A stretch of 64,000 bases of DNA, from positions 1,444 to 65,443 of the forward strand of contig DATDYP010000005.1 in assembly GCA_035288985.1 (NCBI GenBank), written 5' to 3'. The DNA is from Candidatus Nanoarchaeia archaeon (GTDB lineage Archaea > Nanobdellota > Nanobdellia > Woesearchaeales > GW2011-AR9). A model generated the notes under the pieces. The model was not told the origin of the DNA. It searched no databases and was given only the letters and a program-made list of their open reading frames with translations. Position numbers and translations under genes: made by a program. Below, one piece after another: positions 6,684-52,824 of this stretch; the first letter of the stretch is position 1, and the number at the start of each line of letters is the position of its first letter.

Positions 6684-7145
6684 ATGACTTCACTACCAGA
6701 CTATCTTCGGCAATTGCGCCGCTCCAGAGGACTAAGTGCAGAAAGCTTAAGCTTGATCATACAGGATGCTGTTCCTGCAGATGTGGGAAAAAGATCCGCA
6801 TCAACTATCTGCAGTTATATCTGGGAATTTGAAAAAGGCTTGGGAAGCTTCAATAGAGCGCTGGCAGGGGATGATCCATATAAAACTGTCCTTCTTCTGT
6901 ATGTCGGCGCGCTGAATCCTTCGGAAGAGGAACAAGAGGCACTATCCCAGATGCTTTCTCCTTATGCAGACAGGAAGATGCAACAGAGCTTCTTCAGAGA
7001 AGTTTCACGCTTACAACCAGATCCAGCGCTGCTGCTGACACCTGGAAAGATGTTAGATAAACTTCCTGATGGAGATGATAAAGATCAACTGGTACGAAAA
7101 GTGGAGAGGTTATATCAAAGGTATTCAGGTGTAAAAAAGAGATGA
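6684..7145 (+). CDS. Hypothetical protein with possible N-terminal XRE-like HTH
   Basis: LRQLRRSRGLSAESLSLIIQ resembles an HTH. Otherwise unknown. Confidence 0.3.
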   Translation: MTSLPDYLRQLRRSRGLSAESLSLIIQDAVPADVGKRSASTICSYIWEFEKGLGSFNRALAGDDPYKTVLLLYVGALNPSEEEQEALSQMLSPYADRKMQQSFFREVSRLQPDPALLLTPGKMLDKLPDGDDKDQLVRKVERLYQRYSGVKKR

Positions 7146-7175
7146 TTGTTTAAGGACTGATCTTTATGATTTATT

Positions 7176-8000
7176 TCACTCCCGCATCAAACGGGAATCC
7201 TCCCGGTAATCCTTATATACATCAATAATGTTCAACTGCAGCATCAAGGCAATTTCATCTAACACAGCCTGATCCAAAAATGTCCCTATTCTCAGGGATT
7301 TTCTATCACCCAGGGCTGGCAAGGGCATCTCGGCTGTTACCTTAATAAGATCATCCAATGCAAGGAGATCTTTGCCATCAGCAGTTTCAAGATACAGTTT
7401 ACCCAGCAAGCGCTCTGCGATTTTAACGTTATTTTTAGTTGCCCTTGGAACCTTGAAATTAGAACGCCGTAAAGTTCCATCTACTGCGTTTACAAAACTA
7501 CATCCTAAATCAAGATACAAAATATTTCCCGTTTCAGCAACATAGCGAAAGTTCTGAGCCTTATTAGAAACATCTGACACCAGCAGAAGGTCACGGTATA
7601 ATTTATCCCTTTCCAAGGCGCGCTGTCTTCCTTCAGAATCCTGTACGGGAGGCACTTCCATGATCTCAGAGACGAAGTAGAGAGGCATGCGTTCATTAAT
7701 TCTGGGAATATCACGCGAATCATAACTTACTTTAAGGCTTCCATCATTCACCAAGACATAGAAGTTCGGCGCATGCAATCCTGCCCGTTGAGCAAGGTGA
7801 AGTGTGATCGCTTCATAAATCGGCTGTTCGATGTGATCAAAAGGAAGTTCATCCCCGGTTACAGAAACGCCATTAGCAAATGAAGAACTATGGCAATATT
7901 TGAGATAGGCGTGAAATTCACGATTGCCCACTCTCACAATAGCTTTCCCGCCTGGATTAGAGCCTTTTCTACCAGTATAAAAATGGATGTCTACGGTCAT
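7176..8000 (-). CDS. Hypothetical protein with a kinase-like motif arrangement (atypical PI3/4-kinase or protein-kinase-like fold, speculative)
   Basis: G-rich loop GRKGSNPGGKAIV, then DVSNKAQN and YLDLG, spaced like catalytic and DFG-type motifs. ATG at 8000 preferred over TTG at 8027. Confidence 0.3.
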   Translation of the reverse strand: MTVDIHFYTGRKGSNPGGKAIVRVGNREFHAYLKYCHSSSFANGVSVTGDELPFDHIEQPIYEAITLHLAQRAGLHAPNFYVLVNDGSLKVSYDSRDIPRINERMPLYFVSEIMEVPPVQDSEGRQRALERDKLYRDLLLVSDVSNKAQNFRYVAETGNILYLDLGCSFVNAVDGTLRRSNFKVPRATKNNVKIAERLLGKLYLETADGKDLLALDDLIKVTAEMPLPALGDRKSLRIGTFLDQAVLDEIALMLQLNIIDVYKDYREDSRLMRE

Positions 8001-10701: not shown

Positions 10702-10709
10702 TTTATAAA
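10702..10709. promoter_or_regulatory. Palindromic TATA box (tttataaa), possibly used in both directions (tuf on the minus strand, structured element on the plus strand)
   Basis: 26 nt upstream of the element arm at 10736 on the plus strand. About 75 nt upstream of the tuf ATG on the minus strand. Confidence 0.4.
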
Positions 10710-10735
10710 GATTTCGGTTAGAATAGGAAAACAAA

Positions 10736-10860
10736 GCCAAAGTCGTCGTCATGGCCTTAAGGTTTGCGAGAAAATGTTCACTTTAGTCAAAAATTAAGTC
10801 CTATCCTTTCAAATCTTTACGACGAGGATAGGTCGAGCAAACGGCCAAGACGACTTTGGC
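10736..10860 (+). ncRNA. Candidate structured small RNA (unknown class): 12-bp terminal stem plus GGCC/GGCC clamp. Homolog of the element at 51446-51591.
   Basis: GCCAAAGTCGTC (10736-47) pairs perfectly with GACGACTTTGGC (10849-60). GGCC at 10753-56 and 10843-46. Inner helix GTTTGC/GCAAAC. TATA at -27; T8 run at 10873-80. Strand is uncertain. Confidence 0.35.
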
Positions 10861-10865
10861 AAATA

Positions 10866-11240
10866 TCAACTATTTTTTTTCAAATCCAGATCTTTTCTGA
10901 CTTTATCATAATATTTATGATCTCCCAAATGAAATTCAATATAGATTGAATTCTTCACTTTTACAAACAGAATTCTATACTCGGTATTTTCAATGCTAAA
11001 CGGATAGCGAAAAGTGAGGAGCTCATTAGCAGACCATCCTTTATATTGCCTTTTTGAACCAACAACTATTGGCTGAATTTTCTTCTGAATAACCTCTTCC
11101 AGCCAAGCATAAATCTTCTCAGCTTTCGTCTCTGTTAATAAATTTACAATTTGATCGAAATTCCTTCCCAGAAATCCTACTTCATAATCTTGAGAGATAA
11201 TTGCTTCTACTTTCTTTCTAAAGTTTTTTGGATTAACCAT
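10866..11240 (-). CDS. RelE/ParE-like toxin-fold protein (putative)
   Basis: C-terminal YRILFVKVKNSIYIEFHLGDHKYY resembles the RelE/ParE core. ATGGTTAA overlap with the upstream NTase gene. AT-rich. Confidence 0.4.
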   Translation of the reverse strand: MVNPKNFRKKVEAIISQDYEVGFLGRNFDQIVNLLTETKAEKIYAWLEEVIQKKIQPIVVGSKRQYKGWSANELLTFRYPFSIENTEYRILFVKVKNSIYIEFHLGDHKYYDKVRKDLDLKKNS

Positions 11241-11889
11241 GAGCTGCTTTCACAGCCTCATGAGCCAATTCGTATAAAAAGCTTTGGGCATCATATTCTC
11301 GTAAATCTTTATAATATCCTGCTTGAGTATAAAAGAATCGTTTTGCATACGAAAATTTCATTTCTTTTCTAATAATTTCAATGAGTTCATTTTTGAGGTA
11401 ATCAAGAACCTCCTGATAATCTTTAAAAGAATTAATTTTCTGTGTCAGTTGAAAAGTATCTAACACTTCGCCAGTTCTAAAGTACTCTGTGTACAAAATC
11501 AAGAAACGCACATTTTTGTGGAATTTATCCTTCTCATTCATCAGGGTAGGAATCGCTTCATTAATGACATTCCAATAATCAGAGAAAGTTACTTTGAGCT
11601 GTTTCGTGGTAAGAATATTTTTAGCAATACAGCTTTTAGAGCTGGAATGGTAAAATAAAGAGTACAAATCATTAAAGTCTATTACCGTAATTTTAACTTT
11701 TTTATTTGATATTTTAAACTCCTTTTTGCTTCTGGAAATCACAAAAACATCAATATCGTTATATTTATCCTTGTAGAGGAAAGACCCGGTGATGAAACAG
11801 TATTTAGCTGGAATTTGCTTTAAGAGTTCTTCTGCTAACTTGATTCTTTCTTTGACGAGAGGTCTGTTTTGGGGATTGTAGATGATCAT
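11233..11889 (-). CDS. Minimal nucleotidyltransferase (MNT-like) domain protein
   Basis: FITGSFLYKDKYNDIDVFVI matches the GS...DxD Pol-beta NTase signature. Helical C-terminal half. AT-rich. Confidence 0.55.
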   Translation of the reverse strand: MIIYNPQNRPLVKERIKLAEELLKQIPAKYCFITGSFLYKDKYNDIDVFVISRSKKEFKISNKKVKITVIDFNDLYSLFYHSSSKSCIAKNILTTKQLKVTFSDYWNVINEAIPTLMNEKDKFHKNVRFLILYTEYFRTGEVLDTFQLTQKINSFKDYQEVLDYLKNELIEIIRKEMKFSYAKRFFYTQAGYYKDLREYDAQSFLYELAHEAVKAAHG

Positions 11890-12025: not shown

Positions 12026-12409
12026 TCAGTAATCATTTCCGTCTATAATAACTCCCCTTTCCACTACCGTCCGTTCAGGCATTCCATTATATCCAGGTTT
12101 GCCATCAAAAGATTTATGCAAGGCATGGAGCAATTCAGGATGCCCAGGGCCGACTTCATTTACTACAAGAACTCGGCTGCTGCCAAGACAATCAGCCTCC
12201 ACCATAACATATGAAGACTGATTCCTGCTAATGGGAGCAACATAATAAGTTTTAGCCATTACCAGGCCGCTAGTTGTGCTAAGACAATTTATGCCTCCTA
12301 AGCTATCTAGGATTCCTTCTAAGTTGCGCATTACACCATGCTGAGGCATCCCTTCTACAGGAAGATGGTGAAAGATTCTTTGTTCATACCTAACTACTCT
12401 TCTTACCAT
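12026..12409 (-). CDS. Hypothetical protein (127 aa), starts 2 nt after the fusA stop
   Basis: ORF only. GC-richer than the adjacent islet. No motif recognised. Confidence 0.4.
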   Translation of the reverse strand: MVRRVVRYEQRIFHHLPVEGMPQHGVMRNLEGILDSLGGINCLSTTSGLVMAKTYYVAPISRNQSSYVMVEADCLGSSRVLVVNEVGPGHPELLHALHKSFDGKPGYNGMPERTVVERGVIIDGNDY

Positions 12410-30151: not shown

Positions 30152-30245
30152 GGACCCGTAGCCTAACCTGGATAGGGCGACAGGACTATAGTCTCGCCAA
30201 AGCCTCCTAAGCTGTAGGTTGTGAGTTCAAATCTCATCGGGTCCG
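30152..30245 (+). tRNA. tRNA-Arg(CCU) with a 19-nt non-canonical intron (30184-30202, between positions 30/31)
   Basis: Acceptor GGACCCG/CGGGTCC, D stem GCCT/GGGC, T arm GTGAG-TTCAAAT-CTCAT. After intron removal the anticodon arm is ACAGC-CTCCTAA-GCTGT (anticodon 30206-08). Confidence 0.75.
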
Positions 30246-30291
30246 CTTTCATAATCCAGCCTCAAGATCTTATGATGAGCTCAAAAGTAAT

Positions 30292-32569: not shown

Positions 32570-32884
32570 TTGTTTATGAATAATCAAACCTTTCAAAGAA
32601 GTGTTTTGAATAGTTTTTCAAAACCCTCTCTTGAATTCTTTGCTGATGATGATCTTTGTGTCAGAATAAACCAAATAGAATTAGCACTTAAAGTAAGTAT
32701 ATTATTTGATGCCGTTAGAGATTACATTCAAGGCCGATCCTCTGATGAGTCTGATGTGAGTACGAGAACAACAGAATTATATAAAGAATTACGCTGGTTG
32801 GTACATAATTATGTTTCTCCTTCTTGGGAAAATCGCAGTATGGAAGCTCTGAAGGAACGCTGGAATTTATACCAAAGGACATAA
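32570..32884 (+). CDS. Hypothetical protein (104 aa)
   Basis: ORF only; AT-rich. Confidence 0.3.
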   Translation: MFMNNQTFQRSVLNSFSKPSLEFFADDDLCVRINQIELALKVSILFDAVRDYIQGRSSDESDVSTRTTELYKELRWLVHNYVSPSWENRSMEALKERWNLYQRT

Positions 32885-32972
32885 ATTTTCGAAGAAAATT
32901 TAAGCCCTTTGTATATATAAAGGAGGGAAATTTTGTTCGAAAATTTCAATCCTTTAGTATAACGCAAAAAAG
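32883..32972. repeat. Imperfect tandem duplication (~45-bp period), each unit containing a TTCGAA-centred near-palindrome
   Basis: Unit 1 is aaattttcgaagaaaatttaagccctttgtata. Unit 2 is aaattttgttcgaaaatttcaatcctttagtata. Confidence 0.45.
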
Positions 32973-45691: not shown

Positions 45692-45710
45692 GCTCCTTTG
45701 TTGAGAACGG

Positions 45711-45962
45711 CACAGTTCAAAAAGTGAGTGATGGCGGGCCGTTCGCCTCGTGCACACAAAGTGACAACGATCACTTTGGTGCCCCAATAAAGTCGTTGCT
45801 TTATTGCGGGCTTCTTGGTATGTTTATTCTTGCAGGAAGCACCTACCAATACTTGCATAGCTTATGGAATTTAAAATAAATTCCAAATCCTCGACTTCGT
45901 CTGCGGAATCGTTGTTCTCGGTTCACATAGTGGCCTTGCCATCACTCACAAAACGGATTGTG
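45711..45962 (+). ncRNA. Candidate structured RNA (~250 nt, unknown class) with 12-bp terminal stem plus GGCC clamp
   Basis: GTGAGTGATGGC (45724-35) pairs with GCCATCACTCAC (45938-49). GGCC at 45737-40 and 45932-35. Internal hairpins CAAAGTGA/TCACTTTG, AATAAAG/CTTTATT, GGAATTT/AAATTCC. 316-bp non-coding gap. Confidence 0.3.
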
Positions 45963-46008
45963 CCTCCCGAACAAAATGTTTTTAAACAGAGTTCCTTTTT
46001 GAGATAGT

Positions 46009-46521
46009 ATGTCGGAATTAAAAAACCAGCTCTGCAATTTTTGCGGGGAACAGAAACTTACTTTAAAGGAAGAGGAGATAGAGATCCCTTACTTTGGCAG
46101 GGTTTACATTTTTTCCATGGAATGCGGTTCCTGCCATTACCGGAAGTCCGATGTCGAGCCGGCAGAACAAAAAGAGCCCTGCAAATACACCCTCGAAGTT
46201 TCTTCCGAAGACGATCTTAACATCAAGATTGTCAAATCCGGTGAAGCGACAGTGAAGATACCCCATATCATCACCATGGAGGCCGGACCGGCTTCTAACG
46301 GCTACGTCACAAATGTAGAAGGGCTGCTGGAAAGGGTCAAGAAAAACATCGAATCTGCCGCTGATGCGGAGGACGATGCTGCAGCCAAAAAAAAGGCTAA
46401 GAATCTGATCAAGAAATTAAACAAAGTTCTGGTAGGCAGGGAGAGCCTTAAGATCATCATTGAAGATCCTACCGGGCATAGCGTAATTATCTCTGACAAA
46501 GCGCAGCGAAGCAAGCTTTAG
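46009..46521 (+). CDS. ZPR1-type zinc-finger protein
   Basis: CNFCG...IPYFGRVYIFSMECGSCHYR, a ZPR1 zinc ribbon followed by a beta-rich domain. Confidence 0.75.
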   Translation: MSELKNQLCNFCGEQKLTLKEEEIEIPYFGRVYIFSMECGSCHYRKSDVEPAEQKEPCKYTLEVSSEDDLNIKIVKSGEATVKIPHIITMEAGPASNGYVTNVEGLLERVKKNIESAADAEDDAAAKKKAKNLIKKLNKVLVGRESLKIIIEDPTGHSVIISDKAQRSKL

Positions 46522-51200: not shown

Positions 51201-51389
51201 ATCTTTCATAGAAGTCTGCCAGGCAGTGCCCAGATGAACTCTTCCCGAGGTATAGGGCGGCCCTTCCAGGAAGTAGAACTTCTTGCCATTCTGATTCTGT
51301 TTACGGAGATGCTCCACAGCCTTAATCTTCTGCCAGAATTGAAGTATTTGCGGTTCTAATTGCTGGGGATGGTAGTCAGGAAAGTGCAT
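48267..51389 (-). CDS. ileS: Isoleucyl-tRNA synthetase
   Basis: PPYTSGRVHLGTAW (HIGH-type), KMSKS, editing-domain insert. 1040 aa. Leaderless ATG 23 nt from the TATA at 51413-20. Confidence 0.97.
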   Translation of the reverse strand: MHFPDYHPQQLEPQILQFWQKIKAVEHLRKQNQNGKKFYFLEGPPYTSGRVHLGTAWQTSMKDIVLRYKRMQGYNVWDRMGYDMHGLPTEQKTMAKLGLKNKEDIEKFGIAKFMKECEIFCTEMMQRMNEDFIRLGLTMDFSDPYQPITKQFMESEWWLIKQAQKKGRLYQGLRTMHWDAATQTAVAKHELEYKKLTDTSIYVKFQHAKNPAKFFIVWTTTPWTIPLNLGVMVNPDMAYVEVAVDSEVWIVAEKLSAQVLQKAGVKKYSIKKKYPGKELEGQSYKHPLGIKEYLPKELQQNPKLFTVVLSSEYVDDSSGTGLVHMAPGCGPEDYEVGHHHGIPPFNCVNEEGLFEHFGQFSGWKAKTDDRKFIQALDEAHSLLAKEPYVHDYPHGERSHQPVIFRTTKQWFFKVEDLKKKMLAANKKIYWNPAAAKNAFDSWLDNLRDNSITKQRYWGTPVPIWQAKDGDYLVVGSIAELEKLSGQKMKGMHIPEIDTITITKKGKVYTRIPDVLDVWIDAGTVSWNCLNYPQEKKLFDQFFPADFILEGKDQIRGWFNLLMVASFLAFGKPAFKNVYMNGFVTDVSGVKMSKSLGNIISPDELVQKHGADVLRYYMFQTNAGEDINFSWEECAAKSRLLLVLWNTHKFLLTMSRENDCNPFTLKKVVLDNEEKYLLSRLHSTIKEVTALLEEYRLDESIAPLENLFLELSRTYIQMVREKSASGSDEEKEACLYTIGNVFLETIKMFSLIAPFICEAMYLNLKEEFGMKEESIMHYSWPEADGKKINKKLEEQIAAAQGIIQAGLHAREKAKLGVRWPVKEVRVISENPSIQGVVSQLQGVLCSLLNAKAIVAVKDGAEIQTKVKPNYAKIGPAYGKLSPQIIAKLALDSPQTILQHLQKDGKYTFAIDGKQVEITAEMLLLEREAPRNYQLSEFKDAVILVNTERTDELEAEGFARELARNVQELRKKAGLQKTDKIILSLKTSTGMQKMLGPLKNEIQAKVGAQSFDVAVSEPKKKYKLIDSFKVKEEEFTAYFEKV

Positions 51390-51412: not shown

Positions 51413-51420
51413 TTTATAAA
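51413..51420. promoter_or_regulatory. Palindromic TATA box (tttataaa) between ileS (minus strand) and the structured element (plus strand)
   Basis: 23 nt from the ileS ATG (51389) and 25 nt from the element arm start (51446). Confidence 0.45.
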
Positions 51421-51445
51421 CATTATGCTCTCAGCAGCAATGTAG

Positions 51446-51591
51446 AAAAAGTCGCCGCCTAGGCCATGATGCGAATGAGGAACTGCTTTTCGTAAGACTT
51501 ATTGGTAGTTCAATTCTTTCGAAAGATTGTGCCTTTTGCAAAAAAAAGACGAAGCGAGAATTGACCGAATGAGCGGCCAAGGCGACTTTTT
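51446..51591 (+). ncRNA. Candidate structured small RNA (unknown class), homolog of the element at 10736-10860
   Basis: AAAAAGTCGCC (51446-56) pairs with GGCGACTTTTT (51581-91). GGCC at 51462-65 and 51575-78. Same arm-N5-GGCC...GGCC-AA-arm layout. Ends in T6. Strand is uncertain. Confidence 0.35.
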
Positions 51592-51618
51592 TGAAATTTT
51601 CTACAAAGCGGCTCTGCT

Positions 51619-52824
51619 TTACTTCCCAGCTAGACGGTAATATACGCCAGCCCCTTTCAGTTTTTTTTCTTTTGTTAATGTACCTTCTTTGCTTAAAGAG
51701 CTCATGAAAAGCCTAGTGACTTCATCATTCCACCCTAATAGGCGGGCAACCTCTACAGGTCTTGCTCCCCGGCCATGCTCGTCCATGTACATTGTAATTG
51801 CGGTAGTAATGTCAGATACTCTTTCTTCATGACTTACTGCATTAAGGTGAGGAGAAACCTGGCGATATAATTCAATGCCGGCATCTAGATAAGCAGTAAA
51901 TCGTTGCGCATCCCTCCTGAATTCAGTAAGAAGTTCCCGCGCTTGCTGTAATTCATCACCCTGCTGAAGAGCTTTTCGTAGAAAGGTCACATAGCCTAAG
52001 AATGCCTGTGCAGAGTCATGTATGCTTACAGAACTAGAAGCTTTTTGACCATCTTTATTAGGTCCAGTTGACTGATAGTTAATCAGCCCTAATTTAGCTA
52101 ATTGCGCAATCTGTTTAGAAATAACACTTCCAAGATTTTTCAGCCGTAAGCCTGTCCCTGCAATTTCTGGTATTGTAGAAGCCCCATCTCTGACTGCCTC
52201 AAGAACTCTGACTCTATTATACGGAGCTCTGCTATCACCCTTGGAATGAGTAGAGGACAATACTGAATAAAGAGAGATATTGTTATCAACTGCAAATTTA
52301 AGGGAGTACGCTGCTAAAGGCTGTCCATACTTGCTGCCTGCTTCTGAGATGACAAACTGTTTTCTTGCAAGTCCTGGGATTAATAAGCGGTTGTACTCCT
52401 CGCTGGCAACAAGCCCAATATTCACCAACGATTGATTACAGTATTCTCCCATTACATGAATACCTGGTAACTGAACTGTGGTTTGTCTTTCAATACGTCT
52501 CCAGATATCAGTAGGACTGGCAGGAAACCCATTAAGAGCAAGAACAACTGCCTGTTTCAATTCAGAATTGACAGAATTGAGTACCGCTTCCAGGCGCACT
52601 TCCTCATTTTCTGGAAAGTCATGGACGGTCCTGTCAACAAGAAGATCAGCAAATTCTTCAACTGTAATAATTCCAGCAACTCTGGCCTGCTGTAAATGCC
52701 TGAATAAAGCCTTGCTGCCTAATTGGTATCTATCTCTCAGATCTGAAAAAGAGGTCCCGCTGGTAAAATCTGCTGCTATCCCTAAAATAAGATCCTGCGT
52801 ATCCATAGCCTTATTTTCTTTCAT
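51619..52824 (-). CDS. Hypothetical protein with probable winged-helix domains
   Basis: HTH-like SKALFRHLQQARVAGIIT and a C-terminal VEVARLLGWNDEVTRLFMSSLSKEGTL. Otherwise unknown. Confidence 0.3.
   Translation of the reverse strand: MKENKAMDTQDLILGIAADFTSGTSFSDLRDRYQLGSKALFRHLQQARVAGIITVEEFADLLVDRTVHDFPENEEVRLEAVLNSVNSELKQAVVLALNGFPASPTDIWRRIERQTTVQLPGIHVMGEYCNQSLVNIGLVASEEYNRLLIPGLARKQFVISEAGSKYGQPLAAYSLKFAVDNNISLYSVLSSTHSKGDSRAPYNRVRVLEAVRDGASTIPEIAGTGLRLKNLGSVISKQIAQLAKLGLINYQSTGPNKDGQKASSSVSIHDSAQAFLGYVTFLRKALQQGDELQQARELLTEFRRDAQRFTAYLDAGIELYRQVSPHLNAVSHEERVSDITTAITMYMDEHGRGARPVEVARLLGWNDEVTRLFMSSLSKEGTLTKEKKLKGAGVYYRLAGK

Follow-up and report, generated by a model that had tools for sequence, protein, structure and literature searches.

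The structured element at positions 10736–10860 of the window, by which we mean the whole 64,000-nt stretch of archaeal DNA analyzed here, is probably a member of a MITE-like family of non-autonomous DNA transposons of DPANN archaea (Woese-, Pace- and Nanoarchaeota), which resembles the IS5/IS903 elements and targets promoters with unusual precision. Homologues of EF-1alpha and IleRS put the window itself in the Woesearchaeota (Nanoarchaeota of the GTDB taxonomy). A sequence-only reading of the same DNA had proposed a small-RNA-like element with a TATA box and an oligo-T run of its own; a structured, inserted family element with covarying helices is what stands of this proposal, while a private promoter and terminator are not supported. 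The features of the window are collected in Table 1, and loci outside the window are referred to by L numbers.

Table 1. Elements, their ends and the neighboring core promoters in the window.
Feature	Positions	Strand	Description
EF-1alpha BRE/TATA core promoter	10702–10717	−	reverse complement ..CCGAAATC-TTTATAAA; insertion landmark, not private to copy 1
Gap between BRE and P1, copy 1	10716–10735	+	20 nt, GGTTAGAAT + AGGAAAACAA(A); read against the target logo
Copy 1 core	10736–10860	+	P1 12 bp / 5+2 loop / P2 GGCC / 5-nt bulge / P3 GUUUGC-GCAAAC / small hairpin / CCUAUCC hairpin
Third, longer related element	45709–45964	−	27-nt imperfect inverted repeat GGCACAGTTCAAAAAGTGAGTGATGGC; interior modules common to the L269 copy
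IleRS TATA (51413–51420) and 6-nt BRE position	51413–51426	−	leaderless gene, ATG at 51389, 23 nt from TATA
Copy 2 left end	51427–51445	+	decayed duplication GCTCTCAGC (51427–51435) and decayed inverted repeat AGCAATGTAG (51436–51445)
Copy 2 core	51446–51591	+	type B: AAAAAGUCGCC GCCUA GGCC ... GGCC AA GGCGACUUUUU; 97 bits
Copy 2 right end	51592–51619	+	9-nt spacer TGAAATTTT, inverted repeat CTACAAAGCG, decayed duplication GCTCTGCTT

A structured element upstream of the EF-1alpha gene

Copy 1 is bounded by a perfect 12-bp inverted repeat (GCCAAAGTCGTC at 10736–47 and GACGACTTTGGC at 10849–60), which confirms the terminal helix (P1) of the sequence-only reading, and folding reproduces the remainder of the structure drawn there, namely the GUCAU/AA loop, the GGCC/GGCC helix (P2), the 5-nt bulge, the GUUUGC/GCAAAC helix (P3) and the CCUAUCC...GGAUAGG hairpin. 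The minimum free energy of the plus strand is −47.1 kcal/mol, compared with −25.0 ± 3.5 kcal/mol for dinucleotide shuffles (z −6.4; none of 200 shuffles was as good), and the minus strand is nearly as stable when folded (−45.4 kcal/mol, z −5.8). The z value of the plus strand, the identical sequence in independent ENA assemblies and the approximately 95 homologues described below refute the idea that the hairpin arose by chance or through misassembly. The sole entry of the ORF scan that overlaps the core is a 61-aa ORF with a TTG start at 10764–10949, for which a coding role is not evident.

No known RNA class had been recognized by eye, and the Rfam check agrees, since it gave nothing at the gathering threshold and only noise at E<10. 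The 4-bp helix between unpaired stretches and the 5+2 internal loop recall bulge-helix-bulge stems and k-turn RNAs. However, the bulges of the element are 5/2 and 5/0 and lie mostly on one strand, which is the wrong geometry for a bulge-helix-bulge motif with its 3-4-3 arrangement of 3-nt bulges on opposite strands, and a k-turn, whether placed in the 5+2 loop or in P3, is rejected because there are no G.A pairs beside the bulge. Resemblances to 5S rRNA, to the SRP Alu or S domain and to the RNase P P4/CR-I motif ("AAAGUC") are without Rfam support and their helices pair differently; a hammerhead-like "CUGAGAA...GAA" junction has the wrong topology, as its flanking strands pair together; and a Y-RNA-like analogy has no supporting evidence.

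The element could alternatively belong to a genuine small non-coding RNA family, either mobile or transposon-derived and domesticated, and we consider this unlikely. Copy 1 would then give a plus-strand transcript of ~125 nt, starting ~23 nt from a shared palindromic TATA and ending in the P1 U-run or in the downstream T-runs, while the conserved 5+2 loop and the GGCC clamp would bind a protein. The TATA box at 10702–09 (TTTATAAA), the 26 nt that separate it from the copy 1 stem and the T8 run at 10873–80 are indeed located as the earlier reading had them, and this spacing suits a transcription start just before P1. Nevertheless, the TATA box said to be the element's own is that of the EF-1alpha BRE/TATA promoter (CCGAAATCTTTATAAATAA), which is conserved in three relatives (L320, L321 and L322; EF-1alpha identity ~90%) that all lack the element, one of the three having the neighboring two-gene islet too. 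The T8 run, a would-be terminator, is coding sequence near the C-terminal end of ORF 10866–11240 (product ending KKNS). Together with the lack of an Rfam match, the absence of the element from the nearest relatives and the coding nature of this T-run count against an RNA gene. Divergent transcription toward the element may arise at the palindromic EF-1alpha TATA, which would place a start near 10732–33; no BRE facing copy 1 from this TATA was found.

On its other side copy 1 adjoins a small gene islet between EF-2 and EF-1alpha (10866–11889, containing ORF124 and ORF218, and 12026–12409), in which no gene matches Pfam. By eye, ORF218 shows a nucleotidyltransferase-like GS..D.D motif. The ORF218–ORF124 pair is kept in the relative L320 and missing from L321, and the C-terminus of ORF124 diverges from its L320 homologue exactly at the point where copy 1 abuts. 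Three neighbors of elements, ORF124, ORF218 and ORF401, show no mutual resemblance by eye and none of them has a Pfam family, thus a fixed partner protein is unlikely. That the neighboring genes vary by locus also weighs against the small-RNA interpretation.

A family of miniature elements with transposon hallmarks

We searched genome and metagenome collections with a gapped pattern made from the two window copies. Among genomes it matched ~20 AT-rich MAGs of archaea, which bear the labels Woese-, Pace- or Nanoarchaeota, its GC-rich bacterial matches being chance matches, and among metagenomes it gave 98 loci; combined, the two yield ~95 distinct copies of the same architecture. Habitats rich in copies include the Hainich aquifer and the groundwater sampled by JGI. 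The IMG/VR scan returned chance matches only and no true copy. Since the pattern demanded intact P1 and P2, ascertainment accounts for part of the apparent invariance of these two helices. A covariance model made from 20 of the copies recovers family copies at 55–120 bits, and in 637 kb of loci it detected six more, which are diverged, truncated or tandem. The model scores copy 1 at 102 bits and copy 2 at 97 bits, and the layout shared by the two marks a family and not a one-off hairpin, as had been proposed.

The elements are about 125–170 bp in size. The left half of a canonical copy consists of a 9-bp duplication, the 10-bp inverted repeat GGCTCTGTAG, then AAAAAGTCGCC-GCCTA-GGCC and a variable hairpin interior, and the right half of GGCC-AA-GGCGACTTTTT, an optional 9-nt spacer (YGAGAYTTT), CTACAGAGCC and the same 9-bp duplication. 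Approximately half of the copies carry both the 10-bp terminal inverted repeats and an exact 9-bp target-site duplication, which is the very combination, MITE copies with duplications, that had been named beforehand as speaking against an RNA gene. The left-end inverted repeat (GGCTCTGTAG/CTACAGAGCC family ends) is recognizable with at most three mismatches in 62 of 95 copies, and exact direct repeats of 8 nt or more stand at fixed offsets in 46 of 95. When one mismatch is allowed, the 9-bp duplication is found at 52 instances of the element, of which 45 are distinct and have long flanks, and all 52 pairs of inverted repeat and duplication span 100–200 bp. Copies shortened by deletion, a pair in tandem and variants whose ends are altered also belong to the family. 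At L289 elements stand in tandem (6983–7106 and 7145–7294), and a 48-nt mini-derivative at L271:3686–3733 has only P1, P2 and a P3 stub. The latter is followed by a sequence that looks tRNA-like by eye. The window has a single detected tRNA (30152–30246, 94–95 nt; 46 bits as tRNA in Rfam), to which ARAGORN assigned no anticodon and whose length suggests an intron.

There are three copies in the 64-kb window and two each on several 50–60-kb contigs. A survey from 2024 placed a Woesearchaeota genome among the MITE-richest archaea, at 105 per Mb (PMC11602168).

Copy 2 retains both ends in decayed form: its left and right inverted repeats match the family repeat (GGCTCTGTAG) at 7 of 10 and 8 of 10 positions, and its duplication is half-decayed (GCTCTGCTT against the left GCTCTCAGC, 5 of 9 matches). 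It stands at the canonical 6+9+10 nt from the IleRS TATA, so that the core starts 25 nt from 51413–20. Both of the IleRS relatives examined (L328 and L329) have the promoter and lack the element. Directly upstream of IleRS, the Woesearchaeota-like contig L329 encodes at 148–1446 a 432-aa protein with bacterial sigma-70 domains (r1_2, r2 and r4; r3 only faint). The third element of the window is a weak match to the covariance model (14.7 bits, at 45787–45900), and its hairpin modules CACAAAGTGACAACGATCACTTTGGTG and CCAATAAAGTCGTTGCTTTATTG also occur in the truncated L269 copy; it lies 9+6 nt (15 nt) from the TATA at 45980–87 of the leaderless ORF 46009–46521. All three window copies keep the canonical distance from a TATA. 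The window also contains an AT-rich palindrome of 48+48 nt without spacer at 32867–32962, with 79% complementarity.

In the subclass to which copy 1 belongs, the canonical ends are absent or decayed; the distance of copy 1 from the EF-1alpha TATA is nevertheless the canonical one. Its subclass is "type A," which is common to L019, L229, L236, L242 and L284, and neither a terminal inverted repeat nor a target-site duplication is recognizable in it (2–3 of 10 matches to the family repeat). The 20-nt gap before its P1 occupies the position of the 9-bp duplication plus 10-bp inverted repeat of canonical copies; it fits the target consensus GGTnnnnAn and agrees with the inverted-repeat consensus in only 2 of 10 bases. 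The gap partly resembles, by eye, the left flank of L019, and therefore the type A subclass may have different termini. Between loci whose flanks are unrelated (L236/L284 and L232/L281), type A copies without canonical ends are 90–98% identical, which requires either mobility without canonical ends or strong purifying selection. This near-identity also counts in favor of a small-RNA family.

Two pairs of orthologous sites were found (L283:639–763 with L284:594–716, and L222:10446–10570 with L308:616–759). In both, the flanks are 74–83% identical and the ends of the elements are the same, and the interiors are of different classes and differ more than the flanks. The promoter may be a hot spot that was hit more than once, or one copy may have replaced another. 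Interiors that differ at orthologous sites and evolve faster than their flanks do not favor an RNA gene. BLAST among the fetched loci found no clean empty site with a single-copy duplication, and the five relatives without the element at the EF-1alpha or IleRS promoter are distant ones (IleRS ~75% identical).

A fixed insertion site beside BRE and TATA

For 36 duplication-bearing sites we oriented the flanks on the nearby AT-rich octamer and derived a target logo, which reads T[A/T]TATAAA, 6 bases kkTTTy, the 9-bp duplication GGTnnnnAn and then the element. On the opposite strand the kkTTTy block reads as a purine-rich BRE. The register is invariant across the 36 sites, and the far flank is random. 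ORFs reading away from the element start ~34–39 nt beyond the duplication, with their ATG ~22 nt past the TATA, so the target genes have mostly leaderless promoters. The elements integrate exactly 6 bp from the TATA and directly upstream of the BRE of the neighboring gene, leaving its promoter intact; the insertion point therefore lies at approximately −46 to −38 relative to the start of that gene.

The element turns its 5′ end toward the promoter at 25 sites and its 3′ end at 11. The excess agrees with transcription of an RNA from the neighboring TATA; against that reading, one third of the copies are oriented the other way and the target logo contains no BRE-like signal on the side needed for initiation toward the element.

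It is also conceivable, though quite improbable in our judgment, that the element acts as a cis-acting DNA or RNA module, either a bidirectional terminator or insulator that shields the promoter from read-through or an upstream regulatory cassette. A run of U5–6 ends P1 on both strands, and copies lie directly upstream of core promoters, often right after a convergent gene, as such a module would. However, the U-runs of type A are interrupted (CUUUGG), and the duplications and inverted repeats mean that the copies were placed by transposition, so that any role in cis would be secondary.

Covariation and strand

The helices of the family covary. All six P3 pairs show compensatory changes, and one pair of P1 alternates between C-G and U-A in 25 sequences. 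Paired cells amount to 95%, compared with 34–54% in a control with the partners slid; double-sided changes occur in 11 of 21 pairs, and none of 500 shuffles reached the observed values. The apical hairpin changes its sequence between interior classes and is still a hairpin, and the covariation of P3 holds within interior classes. The changes in P3 and in the apical hairpins point to selection for a single-strand fold-back, of RNA or of DNA, since covariation gives the same signal for RNA and for single-stranded DNA.

The evidence on strand is weak. Tandem G.A pairs in P3 are confined to the plus strand (64 G.A cells against 3 C.U), and the plus strand is on average only 1.3 kcal/mol more stable, with G-U counts equal on both strands. 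An RNA transcribed from the plus strand is favored by the architecture kept across sequence classes, the compensation at every P3 pair, the one-sided G.A tandems and the small advantage in stability, whereas the equal G-U counts tell against it. Because P3 covaries strongly and the copies without canonical ends are nearly identical at unrelated loci, the element may also act as a transcribed or domesticated RNA.

Relationship to the IS5 and IS903 elements

The transposon interpretation is joined to a known group by the ends. The inverted repeat of IS903 (GGCTTTGTTGAATAAATC, checked on an annotated IS903 copy) shares 14 of 18 bases with the terminal 18 bases of the family. Within the IS5 family, duplications of 9 bp are made by the IS903 group. 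IS6/IS26-like ends, an alternative candidate, were dropped in favor of IS903 with its 9-bp duplication and verified 14/18 match.

Related full-length elements exist in the same archaea. One of 1023 bp is located at L246:332–1354, on a contig that also has a miniature copy. Its inverted repeats are perfect over 18 bp (GGCTAATATGAAACCCTC, starting GGCT), its duplication is 9 bp long (TTATTCTCC), and it encodes a DDE_Tnp_1+DUF772 transposase of 305 aa; the insertion lies 6 bp from a TATA-like box. A hairpin immediately before the ATG of the transposase gene includes a GAGG/GGAGG motif, a possible ribosome-binding site. The transposase has 614 relatives at E<1e-10, some of them named IS5 family transposase of Pacearchaeota or Woesearchaeota, and relatives at L323–L327 share the target geometry. 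All full-length IS flanks examined (L246, L323, L324, L325 and L326) show the TATA+6+9 arrangement, and hence the targeting is a property of the transposase family. The left end at L323 (GGCTCTTGTGAAA) is close to the end of the miniature element; full-length IS ends agree with the family ends at 10 of 18 positions only, and at L323 over the first ~13. Among all fetched loci, no autonomous IS with exactly the ends of the family (GGCTCTGTAGAAAAAGTC) was found between matching ends.

The traits of the IS5/IS903 group are thus divided, with duplication and ends in the miniature elements and the transposase only in the related full-length IS. We propose that the miniature elements would be mobilized in trans by IS5-family, IS903-group-like DDE transposases of the same archaea. 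In the simplest reading, the invariant P1 and P2 could be subterminal transposase-binding sites; a pure transposase-binding model leaves the covariation of P3 and the one-strand G.A tandems unexplained.

Comparison with known mobile elements

IS903 and its MITE derivatives are similar to the family in the 9-bp duplication, in ends starting GGC with 14/18 identity of the inverted repeats, and in the presence of related full-length DDE_Tnp_1+DUF772 elements in the same archaea. The family differs in that it is without a transposase gene, contains a long structured interior, has no exact parent IS among those found, and inserts with base-pair precision beside an archaeal BRE/TATA. To our knowledge such precise BRE/TATA-adjacent insertion is undescribed for IS903, and we found no paper on IS or MITE elements that insert a constant number of bases away from an archaeal BRE/TATA.

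Correia elements (Neisseria MITEs), ERIC, RUP and BOX are likewise short, fold-back, multi-copy intergenic elements. MITEs of this type lie close to promoters, fold into stable hairpins upon transcription and can resemble small RNAs. They differ from the family in host domain and in their ends; Correia elements duplicate TA, and targeting of promoters at a fixed distance is not known for this type. A functional analogy, and only that, is provided by Ty3 and other promoter-tethered retrotransposons of eukaryotes, whose integration sites keep a constant distance from a landmark of the core promoter. Ty3 uses the Pol III start site, to which it is led by TFIIIB, a complex with TBP and a TFB homologue among its components. 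The present family consists of DNA transposons or MITEs and not of LTR retroelements, and tethering by TBP/TFB is for it a hypothesis only.

The family may be guided by a BRE-TATA landing pad bound by TBP/TFB, which would explain the invariant 6-bp offset. Separately, the type A copies without canonical ends (10736–10860) may be domesticated sRNAs, transcribed divergently from a captured TATA. We hold this combined view to be speculative and rather doubtful. Direct read-out of TTTATAAA and the BRE would explain the targeting data as well as tethering to TBP/TFB does. Insertion of a DDE-type IS with base-pair precision upstream of core promoters is unusual in itself, and it raises the question of whether the transposase reads the BRE/TATA sequence directly or the TBP/TFB complex upon it. 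If guidance by TBP/TFB is true, it is a prokaryotic counterpart of Ty3-like promoter tethering.

Implications

In DPANN genomes a covarying, promoter-adjacent "sRNA" is a tempting mis-annotation, which is corrected where the element is recognized, as we probably should here, as part of a transposon family. Because the register is fixed, the insertions flag BRE/TATA promoters of uncultivated archaea at single-base resolution, and they can thus aid the annotation of promoters and transcription starts. Insertions beside housekeeping promoters, such as those of EF-1alpha and IleRS, could alter upstream regulation or give rise to divergent transcripts.
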